DNA from: a virus
Taxonomy: Duplodnaviria; Heunggongvirae; Uroviricota; Caudoviricetes
Length of the DNA stretch: 23,561 bases
IMG/VR virus record: IMGVR_UViG_2721755727_000003
Strand: one strand, 5' to 3'
Below, in pieces: positions 14,455 through 17,158 of this stretch. The first letter of the stretch is position 1. Each line of letters opens with the position of its first letter. The notes beneath the pieces were generated by a model. The model was not told the DNA's origin. It made no database searches and saw only the letters and a list, made by a program, of their open reading frames with translations. The translations under genes were made by a program, and so were the position numbers.

Positions 14455-14877
14455 TTAATGAACAATGACAGAATCGTCGGAAGAACCGCCGCCGCTGAAA
14501 TGCGCTTTCCGGTAAACGGCTTGGACTGCATCATCATGCGCATCAATTGCCGTACTTAACGCTTCCTGCGCCGCCAGTAATGCACGGCGTTCCAGGGTAT
14601 CGAAGATGCAGAGTCGGTGACGCAGCTCGCGCGGAAGGATTGCCAGAATTGCTGGGATCAGCTTCTGAATTTTTTCTCTTTGCGTTTTCGTTTCACCTTT
14701 CAACCAACGGTGATAGATATTCTGCTGATTGTTCCAGTCCTTGCCTGGAACCAGGGGCAATTCGCCGCCCCCCTGGCGCAGATATTCTTCAGTAATTGCA
14801 TTGGCTACCCATGCCTGCCCTTTTTCGGCTGCTAGGGCAAACAACACTGATTCGATGTGCTCATGCTTGATTTTCAT
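14455..14877 (-). CDS. ydaT: Rac prophage protein YdaT, 140 aa (cII-position gene of the rightward-type operon)
   Basis: 140-aa ORF immediately downstream of ydaS on the same strand; ATG is the complement of 14875-14877. Confidence 0.88.
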   Translation of the reverse strand: MKIKHEHIESVLFALAAEKGQAWVANAITEEYLRQGGGELPLVPGKDWNNQQNIYHRWLKGETKTQREKIQKLIPAILAILPRELRHRLCIFDTLERRALLAAQEALSTAIDAHDDAVQAVYRKAHFSGGGSSDDSVIVH

Positions 14878-14899: not shown

Positions 14900-15196
14900 T
14901 CAGGTATGATCAAATGAGGATTTGTTACTGTCATTTAGTTGCTTCACTGACATATTCTGCGAACAACATGCCGAACGTCGTAAATATGACCAGTCAATAT
15001 CAGGACGAAGTTCTTCGCACAGAACCTCACCTCTTGTTGCACGTTCAATTGCTGGACATCTCTCGGCAGGCAATTGACGTACCCCTTTGATCCATTGATT
15101 TACGCTTGGAGGTGATACACCTAAAAGCCTAGCCATTGCTGATTGCCCACCGACAACAGCACAAGCTTGCTTGAATGAATAGTTCTCTTTTTTCAT
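14900..15196 (-). CDS. ydaS: Cro-like HTH (XRE-family) regulator, 98 aa
   Basis: HTH motif (QSAMARLLGVSPPSVNQWIKG); divergent from racR; GGAG RBS about 9 nt upstream of the ATG. Confidence 0.88.
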   Translation of the reverse strand: MKKENYSFKQACAVVGGQSAMARLLGVSPPSVNQWIKGVRQLPAERCPAIERATRGEVLCEELRPDIDWSYLRRSACCSQNMSVKQLNDSNKSSFDHT

Positions 15197-15222: not shown

Positions 15223-15267
15223 ATATTAGGCGACGCCTAACGCAATTGTCAATAGGCTGTGCCTAAT
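15223..15267 (-). promoter_or_regulatory. ydaS promoter (PR-like) with two palindromic candidate RacR operators
   Basis: On the minus strand: -35 TTGACA (complement of 15247..15252), 18-bp spacer, -10 TAATAT (complement of 15223..15228). Operators TTAGGCGACGCCTAA (15226..15240, perfect palindrome) and ATAGGCTGTGCCTAAT (15252..15267). Confidence 0.55.
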
Positions 15268-15319
15268 GCAGTAAGGGTAGGGATTGCCTAATGTAATGCG
15301 CATAGGAGAATATTAAGCA

Positions 15320-15796
15320 ATGCTTAGTGGTAAAGACTTAGGCCGAGCGATAGAGCAGGCCATTAACAAAAAAATCGCATCGGGATCCGTCAAATCAAAG
15401 GCGGAGGTCGCACGCCACTTTAAAGTCCAACCACCATCAATTTATGACTGGATTAAGAAAGGCTCTATAAGTAAAGATAAACTTCCAGAATTATGGCGTT
15501 TCTTTTCTGATGTTGTTGGTCCAGAGCATTGGGGGCTTAACGAATACCCCATACCAACCCCCACCAATTCAGATACAAAAAGTGAACTTTTAGATATAAA
15601 CAACCTTTATCAAGCAGCCTCTGATGAAATAAGAGCGATTGTAGCTTTCCTGTTATCTGGAAATGCTACAGAACCAGATTGGGTTGACCACGATGTTCGC
15701 GCCTACATAGCAGCGATGGAAATGAAAGTGGGTAAGTATCTGAAAGCTCTTGAATCTGAACGGAAAAGCCAGAACATCACAAAAACTGGAACTTAA
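15320..15796 (+). CDS. racR: Prophage repressor (CI-like), 158 aa
   Basis: HTH near the N-terminus (KAEVARHFKVQPPSIYDWIKKG); flanked on both sides by operator-like palindromes; divergent from ydaS. Confidence 0.9.
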   Translation: MLSGKDLGRAIEQAINKKIASGSVKSKAEVARHFKVQPPSIYDWIKKGSISKDKLPELWRFFSDVVGPEHWGLNEYPIPTPTNSDTKSELLDINNLYQAASDEIRAIVAFLLSGNATEPDWVDHDVRAYIAAMEMKVGKYLKALESERKSQNITKTGT

Positions 15797-15891
15797 ACTT
15801 ATATGGTCTGACGGAAAACTCCTGGATTCCGTTATTTAACCCCCCCATCACTTTCTGCTGTCGCCATCACCTATTAGGTTACGCTCAAAAC

Positions 15892-15935
15892 ATTAGGCAT
15901 AGCCTATTGACAATCAATTAGGCATTACCTATAGT
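15892..15935 (+). promoter_or_regulatory. PL-like promoter downstream of racR with candidate RacR operators
   Basis: -35 TTGACA (15907..15912), 17-bp spacer, -10 TATAGT (15930..15935). Operators ATTAGGCATAGCCTAT (15892..15907) and ATTAGGCATTACCTAT (15917..15932). The 13-bp block GCCTATTGACAAT is shared, inverted, with the ydaS promoter. Confidence 0.5.
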
Positions 15936-16104
15936 TCCAGCATACCACCCACCCCGCCCCACAGAACGCCGGGCAATACTTCGAGTTACCAGGCAGTGGT
16001 AAGGGGTTAAGTAGCCAGCCCGAGGCGTATGAACATGACGGCGGGATTCAAATTTTGCAGTGCAGCAGTTAGTTCCGCCACCCGGCGTTAAGGGGAGAGA
16101 TAAG

Positions 16105-16239
16105 ATGGTGCATTACGAAGTAGTTCAGTATTTGATGGATTGTTGCGGTATCACTTACAACCAGGCTGTGCAGGCTTTACGCAGCAACGACTGGGATCTC
16201 TGGCAGGCAGAAGTCGCTATACGTAGCAACAAGATGTGA
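16105..16239 (+). CDS. ydaG: Small Rac prophage protein, 44 aa
   Basis: ATG at 16105 preceded by AAGGGGAGAG; the ORF is below the track's length cut-off and was found by manual translation (MVHYEVVQYLMDCCGITYNQAVQALRSNDWDLWQAEVAIRSNKM). Confidence 0.7.
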   Translation: MVHYEVVQYLMDCCGITYNQAVQALRSNDWDLWQAEVAIRSNKM

Positions 16240-16249
16240 GATTCGCAAA

Positions 16250-16405
16250 ATGCAAAAAATCGACCTCGGCAACAACGAATCCCTGGTGTGCGGCGTGTTC
16301 CCCAACCAGGATGGAACGTTCACTGCCATGACGTATACCAAAAGCAAAACATTTAAAACCGAAACTGGTGCGCGCCGATGGTTGGAGAAGCACACAGTAA
16401 GCTAA
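16250..16405 (+). CDS. ydaF: Small Rac prophage protein, 51 aa
   Basis: Manual translation MQKIDLGNNESLVCGVFPNQDGTFTAMTYTKSKTFKTETGARRWLEKHTVS; its stop overlaps the convergent sieB stop by 4 bp. Confidence 0.7.
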   Translation: MQKIDLGNNESLVCGVFPNQDGTFTAMTYTKSKTFKTETGARRWLEKHTVS

Positions 16406-16890
16406 CGATTAAAACGTCTACTCCTGCTGTTCCAGAATAACTTCATAAAATGGGAGTATTTTTCGGTGACGAGATAATAAGAACAGTTTGCGCTATCACT
16501 CTGATGTTGAATGATGCCCTTCCGTTCTAATTTTTTCATAACCGGGTTACGGCAAGGAGAAGTGATAATAAGATTTCCTGTTTTAAGGAAATCTTTAAAT
16601 ACAGCGATTTCTTTCTCAGATAAACGAAGCAATACTCGTTGCTCTGGTAGTAATGAATAATGCTTTTGAATATGTGCTCGCAATCTTGAGAAGGAAATGG
16701 CGACCACGAAAGAAAAGGCAAAAACGATAATCTGAAAGAGCCAAGGTATTTCAGTATAAGCATTGAATGCGACAGTAAACTCTTTCGGTATCAGCCAGAG
16801 AGTGAGACCAAAAATGATAATCGTATACATAAGTCTTTCGAGTGGCTCGTTAGCAAAAAGTTTCAACAATGGAGTAAATACATCCAACAT
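16402..16890 (-). CDS. sieB: Superinfection exclusion protein B (membrane protein), 162 aa
   Basis: Protein MLDVFTPLLKLFANEPLERLMYTIIIFGLTLWLIPKEF... recognised as SieB; an in-frame upstream ATG at 17013 would add 41 codons (203-aa track ORF). Confidence 0.82.
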   Translation of the reverse strand: MLDVFTPLLKLFANEPLERLMYTIIIFGLTLWLIPKEFTVAFNAYTEIPWLFQIIVFAFSFVVAISFSRLRAHIQKHYSLLPEQRVLLRLSEKEIAVFKDFLKTGNLIITSPCRNPVMKKLERKGIIQHQSDSANCSYYLVTEKYSHFMKLFWNSRSRRFNR

Positions 16891-17108
16891 ATCAATAACT
16901 CTCAACTGTAAGGGTATTGAAATGTTAACACAAGCTCTCGCTGTAGGGGTATAGCCGAGACCACCGAAGCCCGGAGGTGGTGAAATAAAACCGGGCACAA
17001 CACGAAGGCGCATTTCCGATATCCATAAAGAGTCGGTCTTGTCTGTTAAATTTAAATGGTGGGAGTGCGCCTCCGGTTGTAAATAACGACATTGCTGTGT
17101 GTAGTCCT

Positions 17109-17158
17109 GGCGGCATCAGTTTTTTTCTTGAAGTTCGGCTGATGTCCGCCCTTTTTAA
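17109..17158 (+). terminator. Terminator-like inverted repeat upstream of kilR
   Basis: GGCGGCATCAG (17109..17119) and CTGATGTCCGCC (17139..17150) form an ~11-bp stem around a 19-nt loop, followed by CTTTTTAAA. Confidence 0.35.

Follow-up and report, generated by a model that had tools for sequence, protein, structure and literature searches.

A 23,561-bp stretch of viral DNA (hereafter the window, to which all positions refer) corresponds to the Rac prophage found in Escherichia coli K-12. The 2.7 kb around its repressor gene, racR, are 100% identical to E. coli K-12, where they are annotated as sieB, ydaF, ydaG, racR, ydaS and ydaT, and in MG1655 this stretch falls within the "cryptic prophage Rac" (MG1655 coordinate = 1,435,561 - window position). 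Palindromes of a single type flank racR: a right-hand cluster occupies the interval between ydaS and racR, and a left-hand cluster lies just downstream of racR, ahead of ydaG and ydaF. The analyses described here make it probable that racR resides in an immunity module of the lambda type, with an operator-promoter unit at either end and a single recognition sequence common to both; the left-hand unit is predicted by sequence comparison.

Known and predicted operators and promoters on both sides of racR

The elements of the two units are distributed around the repressor gene as follows.

15320..15796, plus strand: racR, repressor gene, 158 amino acids (gene calls, Pfam, MG1655 annotation)
15314..15326: weak right operator TAAGCAATGCTTA, TAAGC-AAT-GCTTA, two mismatches, spanning the racR ATG (PMC9638921)
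15278..15290: right operator TAGGGATTGCCTA, one mismatch (TAGGG), within the racR promoter region; unchanged across 17 Rac-type variants
15253..15265: right operator TAGGCTGTGCCTA, perfect half-sites, adjoining the PydaS -35 (motif scan; PMC9638921)
15227..15239: right operator TAGGCGACGCCTA, perfect TAGGC-N3-GCCTA, overlapping the spacer and 2 bp of the PydaS -10; footprinted RacR operator (PMC9638921)
15252-15247 (-35 TTGACA) and 15228-15223 (-10 TAATAT), minus strand: PydaS, the PR analogue; 18-nt spacer, 10/12 match to consensus
15874..15886: candidate weak third left operator TAGGTTACGCTCA, three mismatches in K-12 and two in relatives; uncertain
15894..15906: predicted promoter-distal left operator TAGGCATAGCCTA, perfect TAGGC-ATA-GCCTA, adjoining the -35 of the PL-like promoter
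15919..15931: predicted promoter-proximal left operator TAGGCATTACCTA, TAGGC-ATT-ACCTA, one mismatch, filling the spacer of the promoter and running 2 bp into the -10
15907-15912 (-35 TTGACA) and 15930-15935 (-10 TATAGT), plus strand: PL-like promoter; 17-nt spacer, 11/12 match; predicted start ~A15942

The right-hand unit has been defined experimentally. Krishnamurthi et al. drew attention to the GCCTAA/TTAGGC repeats between ydaS and racR, showed by electrophoretic mobility shift, thermal shift and chromatin immunoprecipitation-quantitative PCR that RacR binds there, and demonstrated repression of the ydaS promoter (PMC5700373). Wisniewska et al. mapped the ydaS start by primer extension, mapped three racR start sites, found that replacement of TAATAT abolishes promoter activity, and obtained DNase I footprints of RacR over the palindromes and PydaS, with the PydaS region protected at the lowest RacR concentration; the operator consensus published in that work is (T/A)TAGGC-n3-GCCTA(T/A), and YdaS was reported not to repress racR (PMC9638921). 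Later studies counted four inverted repeats and described RacR as an octamer (PMC11014345, PMC11879457), and PydaS, when isolated from its operon, yields ~25,000 Miller units (PMC11879457). On this side, as the experiments of others have shown, RacR dimers occupy up to four sites, occluding the very strong PydaS and overlapping the racR promoters. Because the PydaS footprint, the operator consensus and the start site have all been published, the right-hand half of the arrangement described here was already known. For the sites downstream of racR (15894-15935), we found no description in the literature, and a full-text search with the left-operator sequences came back empty, although an older account may exist.

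A sequence-only reading of this DNA had proposed four palindromes, an inverted 13-bp block and a pair of TTGACA promoters, with TAATAT and TATAGT as their respective -10 elements. All four palindromes are present at the coordinates given there, TAGGCGACGCCTA being contained in a perfect 15-bp palindrome, TTAGGCGACGCCTAA, at 15226-15240, and a promoter scan recovered both promoters. The block, GCCTATTGACAAT, occurs exactly twice, at 15245-15257 on the minus strand and at 15902-15914 on the plus strand (0.05 expected), and belongs to a 35-nt imperfect inverted repeat whose arms are 83% complementary. Overlooked in that reading were the sites at 15278-15290 and 15314-15326, both operators in the literature, and the candidate weak downstream site at 15874-15886.

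A scan for TAGGC-N3-GCCTA with at most one mismatch returns five sites in the 23,561 bp, compared with 0.26 expected, and none of 100 shuffled sequences contained five or more. The sites start at 15227, 15253 and 15278 and at 15894 and 15919, and are thus confined to two clusters that flank racR and are separated by ~665 bp; permitting two mismatches adds a single site, at 15314. The hexamers TTAGGC/GCCTAA are similarly concentrated, with seven of the eight copies in the window falling within 15226-15923. The recognition sequence predicted to be common to both units is (A/T)TAGGC-N3-GCCTA(A/T).

When each unit is read along its own transcribed strand, the two are nearly superimposable: an operator is followed by TTGACA, then by 6-7 nt, and then by a second operator that ends 2 bp into the -10. 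The left-hand unit therefore repeats the recognition sequence and the operator-promoter geometry of PydaS in mirror image. It looks like a predictable new instance of a known arrangement, expected though apparently undescribed. The candidate third left site, TAGGTTACGCTCA, is located 20 bp centre-to-centre from its neighbor, in a conserved block containing ATCACCTATTAGG, and may constitute a third left operator at that spacing. In the conserved block ATCACCTATTAGGTT (15870-15886), tail-to-tail half-sites accompany the weak operator-like TAGGTTACGCTCA.

Left-hand units in other prophages

To compare the units among close relatives, we aligned 12 left-side and 17 right-side sequence variants, drawn from 24 Rac-type loci that comprise two subtypes ~87% identical to one another. 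The operator half-sites, TTGACA, TATAGT and TAATAT are invariant in all of them, while the operators differ in their central triplets (GAC/TTA, TGT/TAT, ATA/AAA and ATT/ACT), and the linkers between them vary as well. A broader comparison, using the 2.7-kb region as query, matched 3,851 E. coli records, 504 of them over most of the query length. Among the matches listed, most of the partial ones begin at 15938-15950, just past the -10 hexamer, and hetero-immune relatives carry unrelated sequence up to the predicted +1 (~15942), beyond which they are near-identical to Rac.

Viral contigs scanned with an exact 16-mer from the transcript leader that begins at this boundary gave 120 loci, three of which are chance matches. 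The 90 nt lying 5' of the leader can be sorted into no fewer than 13 unrelated types, each having a distinct set of repeated palindromes about a TTGAC or TTTAC hexamer, and one of these types is almost identical to the OL/PL region of phage HK022. In a test for cognate OL and OR sequences, made on representatives of these types, we compared 14-mers of each left region, allowing up to two mismatches, with the region 300-1500 nt upstream, a measure that replaced the longest exact shared word, which was too crude. The mean number of positions at which left 14-mers recur is 9.4 in the cognate upstream region, versus 1.2 for non-cognate pairs (permutation p <= 1e-5 over 12 independent immunity types). 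The cognate matches concentrate in one zone of 60-100 bp just 5' of a plus-strand repressor open reading frame (ORF); in some types, as in prophage CP-933P, this zone precedes a repressor operon with extra genes. A two-sided operator arrangement, built from different sequences, is present in at least 10 immunity types besides that of Rac.

The invariance and recurrence of these elements bear on whether the downstream palindromes could resemble operators by accident, or be the inert remains of a right-side segment that was once duplicated. The 35-nt inverted repeat that joins the two regions is what a past duplication or inversion would leave. Half-sites and hexamers, however, have remained unchanged while adjacent bases drift, the two-sided layout recurs with other sequences in those 10 or more other immunity types, and five sites per window is far from the 0.26 that chance predicts; we regard an inert or accidental origin as very improbable.

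Position provides a second line of evidence. In 14 of 14 representatives, spanning at least 12 immunity types, the best sigma-70-like element 5' of the leader has a -10-like hexamer that ends 46-51 nt from the leader anchor; the corresponding distance in Rac is 49 nt. Taken together, the comparisons say that the place occupied in Rac by 15894-15935 is, across the phage group, the site of a repressor-specific operator-promoter unit, with transcription predicted to start where the shared leader begins. The immunity region accordingly has the features of an exchangeable module: it appears to end at the two promoters, and its operators co-vary with its repressor. This evidence supports the identification of the left cluster as a RacR-repressed PL-like promoter, with RacR binding and a start near 15942 both predicted. 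Of the proposal that OR-like and OL-like units flank racR, the right-hand part is thus established by experiment (PMC5700373, PMC9638921), and the left-hand part is supported by comparative tests.

A different view of the same sites is that the downstream palindromes serve as auxiliary operators only, and that TTGACA/TATAGT is not a working promoter. They might then tighten PydaS repression and tune racR autoregulation through an OL-OR loop, or stand in the path of transcription reading through from the racR promoters, while the left-arm genes would be expressed by PracR read-through upon failure of Rho or from internal promoters, such as one upstream of the small RNA KilS. Several published results suit this view. 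Read-through from the racR promoters into kil is reported to be held back normally by trac/timm, a Rho-dependent terminator located in racR or after it that silences kil, and Rho inhibition up-regulates Rac genes (PMC4150792); global start-site data suggest that KilS has its own promoter (PMC8175672); and an octameric RacR is suited to looping (PMC11014345). Set against these points, the 11/12 promoter has an optimal 17-bp spacer, sits exactly between the operators and reproduces the geometry of the proven PydaS; a promoter-like element stands at the same distance from the leader in the 14 representatives of unrelated immunity types; TTGACA and TATAGT do not vary among the Rac-type loci; and in CP-933P the homologous position has been shown to hold a promoter under repressor control (PMC8630535). 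A purely auxiliary function for the left-hand sites is therefore improbable, though less so than a relic.

With a PL-like promoter as the preferred assignment, the left-hand unit would consist of two strong sites bracketing a near-consensus sigma-70 promoter in a mirror image of the PydaS geometry. One site adjoins the -35 and the other covers the spacer and reaches 2 bp into the -10, so bound RacR should exclude RNA polymerase. An OL-OR loop of the kind formed by lambda CI is plausible by analogy, given an octameric RacR and clusters ~665 bp apart.

A conserved leader at the predicted start of the early-left transcript

The segment between the predicted start and ydaG is ~160 nt long and is more widely conserved than the genes on either side of it, occurring in thousands of E. 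coli genomes. It is unannotated in MG1655, and a cmscan search of 15700-16500 against Rfam 15 gave no match at E <= 1. Three features can be distinguished.

15942..16104, plus strand: conserved PL leader; homology among hetero-immune prophages begins here, and the segment ends at the ydaG start codon
15959..15999: covarying hairpin P1, arms CCAC..CGCCGGG / CCAGGCA GUGG, with conserved apical loop CAAUACNNNGAGUUA
16009..16042: blocks AAGTAGCCAGCCYGAGGC and GAACATGAMGGC, near-invariant and located 3' of the hairpin (alignments)

The consensus sequences of the two blocks are AAGUAGCCAGCCYGAGGC and GAACAUGAMGGC. A genome-wide pattern scan and a profile search located the leader core in Serratia, Pectobacterium, Symbiopectobacterium, Pantoea, Winslowiella, Superficieibacter, Arsenophonus and Phlomobacter; overall, it is found in at least nine Enterobacterales genera, always just 3' of a promoter-like element that has palindromes on its flanks. 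The core lies at the predicted extreme 5' end of the PL transcript in no fewer than 13 hetero-immune prophage types.

Hairpin P1 was defined by eye and then tested by pair counting. All 11 of the pairs tested change on both sides, and the covariation score is 0.553, compared with 0.241 +/- 0.016 for shuffled alignments (0 of 500 reached it) and 0.03-0.16 when the partners are slid out of register; a model-based alignment of 72 sequences gave 0.569 versus 0.230. RNAalifold missed the leader hairpin, with MAFFT as well as with model-based alignments. Tests of which strand carries the structure (folding of the arms only, and counts of G.U versus A.C pairs) were mixed: the antisense arms are the more stable in 32 of 48 cases, while the E. 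coli, Pectobacterium-type and most Serratia hairpin variants favor the sense strand. Action of the element on the opposite strand is an alternative to a function in the PL transcript.

Other candidate features of the leader were set aside. A CUUCG/CGAGG helix enclosing two small hairpins was dropped, as the variable triplet of the loop is uncompensated. A nine-codon antisense mini-ORF, MFIRLGLAT (16031-16003, minus strand; consensus MF[ILV][RC]L[GR]LAT), is kept in all lineages and overlies the invariant blocks; it is probably untranslated, since it lacks a Shine-Dalgarno sequence and does not vary at third codon positions. DUF1391 was rejected as an obligatory protein partner of the leader, since the genes downstream differ between genera.

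Searches with nhmmer, and with a covariance model with filters off, found no second copy of the leader in the window, the PR side included. Five Arsenophonus/Phlomobacter loci do carry two copies of the motif, 1.9-2.7 kb apart; judging from two of these loci, in which each copy has its own promoter and operators, they look like adjacent prophage modules. At one Arsenophonus locus (L295:4372-4481), the motif is followed ~205 nt downstream by a 106-amino-acid ORF that matches N-like antiterminators (PHROG 271, E = 3.6e-13), placing the motif in the nutL position in that lineage. At two further loci (L279 and L196), the first ORF after the leader encodes a 43-amino-acid Arg/Lys-rich peptide, MSMNIRQFRMAQRLAQKARAQNSSKKWDAANRIMARALLGRGN, that has no PHROG match and contains KKWDAAN, which we take to resemble the arginine-rich motif of lambda N, AQWKAAN.

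The closest parallel in position is the putL RNA of HK022 (PMC9378689), a structured, cis-encoded element directly 3' of PL in a lambdoid phage without a functional N; as noted above, one immunity type found 5' of a Rac-type leader has an almost HK022-like set of operators and promoter. The elements themselves differ. The leader profile has no nhmmer match, and thus no sequence similarity, on the HK022 PL region, and the Rac leader consists of one long hairpin and linear invariant blocks rather than two stems, with no second copy on the PR side. We tentatively suggest, as a possibility that we rate below even chances, that the ~100-nt core (15959-15999 plus 16009-16042) is an undescribed cis-regulatory element acting on elongation, termination or stability of the early-left transcript. 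By analogy, such an element might be the functional counterpart of lambda nutL and HK022 putL in Rac/Qin/Gifsy-type prophages across the Enterobacterales.

The early-left genes and related switches

The genes and transcripts around the two units are laid out as follows.

14455-14877, minus strand: ydaT
14900-15196, minus strand: ydaS
15809..15834, plus strand: hairpin 3' of the racR stop codon, ACGGAA...TTCCGT; -11 kcal/mol, z = -1.45, with a poor U-tract
16105-16239, plus strand: ydaG, UBA-like, 44 amino acids; with ydaF, the first genes of the presumed PL operon
16250-16405, plus strand: ydaF, DUF1391, 51 amino acids; with ydaG, the first genes of the presumed PL operon
Minus strand: sieB, antisense to the presumed PL transcript
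~17059-17156, plus strand: small RNA KilS, in the kilR 5' untranslated region (MG1655 1,418,405-1,418,502)

Downstream of racR, the plus strand carries ydaG, ydaF, kilR, ydaE, racC, recE, recT, ralR, xis and int, all co-directional, in an order that matches that of a lambda-type early-left operon. No intrinsic terminator is predicted on the plus strand between 15900 and 17600, up to kilR. The hairpin that follows racR is retained in relatives, where the alignment reveals a paired G/C insertion, and may represent a hairpin at a 3' end within the zone where the Rho-dependent terminator trac/timm has been placed (PMC4150792). The 44-residue YdaG matches UBA-like domains (UBA_4, E = 3e-5), an odd fold for a prophage early gene of unknown function.

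The RacR regulon, "ydaFG" included, has been stated to be uncharacterized (PMC11014345); the response of these genes to a loss of RacR has been recorded. When a foreign C protein lowers RacR, ydaF, ydaG, ydaE and racC rise ~40-fold, and ydaC, kilR and ralA >70-fold (PMC6765115); CRISPR interference against racR induces the same set together with recE, recT, xisR and intR (bioRxiv 10.64898/2026.09.06.749655). The derepression seen by RNA-seq fits firing of PL without proving it. In the sequence of events that we propose, a drop in RacR would allow the PL-like promoter to start a transcript near 15942, which would run through the conserved leader into ydaG-ydaF and probably continue across the antisense sieB into kilR-ydaE-racC-recET-ralR-xis-int. 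How far PL transcripts extend toward kilR-recET is inferred, and is the least secure part of the model.

Several observations weigh against this account. The 15907-15935 element is the sole 11/12 promoter match in the window, but 0.54 such matches are expected per shuffled window, so that the match by itself is neither statistically exceptional nor decisive. The published footprint probes end at +85 of racR (PMC9638921), and our comparison loci, having been picked by an exact leader 16-mer, represent leader-sharing prophages rather than all those that bear racR. The derepression could stem from read-through off the racR promoters, and an apparent KilS promoter means that PL is not required for all kilR expression. 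The derepression may also be indirect, because all RacR-depletion experiments published so far simultaneously induce ydaS and ydaT, both by >100-fold (bioRxiv 10.64898/2026.09.06.749655).

This last point can be developed into an explanation of its own, in which ydaG, ydaF, kilR and recET respond to YdaS, as a Cro-like regulator, or to YdaT, as a CII-like one, and the sites downstream of racR are of minor importance. The co-induction of the two genes favors it, as does the finding that YdaT activates transcription at targets both within Rac and beyond it (PMC11879457). What it leaves unexplained is the presence of perfect RacR half-sites around a consensus promoter, and the covariation of operators with repressors across immunity types; moreover, the YdaT box, ATGATT-N6-AATCAA (PMC11879457), differs from the palindromes at 15860-15960, a region in which no pattern search for the box was made. 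We consider an indirect route unlikely, somewhat more so than the auxiliary-operator explanation, and retain direct control by RacR through a PL-like promoter as the preferred one.

On that reading, Rac works like the lambda switch although its repressor is not a CI homolog. The lambda immunity region runs in the order OL/PL, rexBA, cI, OR/PRM/PR and cro. In both phages, the repressor gene lies between two operator clusters of one recognition sequence, each overlapping a strong early promoter (for Rac PL, at the level of sequence). PR diverges from the repressor gene and drives a Cro-family gene, here ydaS, whose product, encoded by the first gene of the PR operon, matches P22_Cro (3.4e-9) and YdaS_toxin (2.6e-31) in Pfam. 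PL is co-directional with the repressor gene and downstream of it, and stands in front of an operon that includes kil, recombination, xis and int genes. The operators are spaced ~25 bp centre-to-centre, and the repressor octamerizes (PMC11014345).

The two systems differ in the repressor and in the dimensions of its targets. RacR has only a weak, sub-threshold HTH_17 (helix-turn-helix) match in Pfam and lacks the Peptidase_S24 autocleavage domain, indicating that it is not a protein of the CI/LexA family. Rac has four right sites and two (perhaps three) left ones, each a 13-bp core with 5-bp half-sites, and its clusters are ~665 bp apart, as opposed to ~2.3 kb in lambda. Its PL is not succeeded by an N gene, and YdaS, as reported, does not repress racR (PMC9638921). 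RacR has been grouped instead with the non-cleavable Gifsy/DicA-type repressors, which are inactivated by antirepressors (PMC3121763; grouping also in PMC10448788).

Two other prophages provide closer relatives of the arrangement. The module of CP-933P in E. coli O157:H7 (PaaR2/YdaS/YdaT, with PL933P and OL1-3) is a sister of that of Rac; its repressor is an octamer, and PL933P is repressed ~100-fold by the repressor and by YdaS (Jurenas et al. 2021, PMC8630535). Among our upstream types, L110, which lies 5' of the same leader, comes close to the CP-933P operator consensus, and additional genes separate its repressor from PL. CP-933P differs from Rac in having operators of the GTTTAGTAA type and a toxin-antitoxin pair between repressor and PL, and in that its left promoter is proven by experiment, whereas the Rac left unit is sequence-based. 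In the Qin prophage, DicA, a short non-cleavable repressor grouped with RacR (PMC3121763), represses dicBp, and operators are found between dicA and dicC and between dicA and dicBp (PMC10448788). The dicBp promoter is the PL analogue, and its first gene, ydfA, encodes a DUF1391 protein, like ydaF. Many of the relatives that we found carry dicF and dicB downstream of the same leader; K-12 Qin itself differs in repressor specificity and has no close copy of the Rac leader, which matches one place per K-12 record.

The recET genes used in recombineering come from Rac, and so do the toxicities of kilR, ralR and ydaS/ydaT, owing to which racR, rho and nusG are conditionally essential in K-12. A PL/OL unit downstream of racR, if true, would provide a direct mechanism for RacR control of ydaG, ydaF, kilR, recET, xis and int. 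The bases that it defines would allow PL firing to be separated from Rho-dependent read-through, and OL-OR looping would become testable for a repressor unrelated to CI. The leader is a separate and more novel lead, as a widespread, unannotated element that opens the early-left operons of prophages that mostly lack N.

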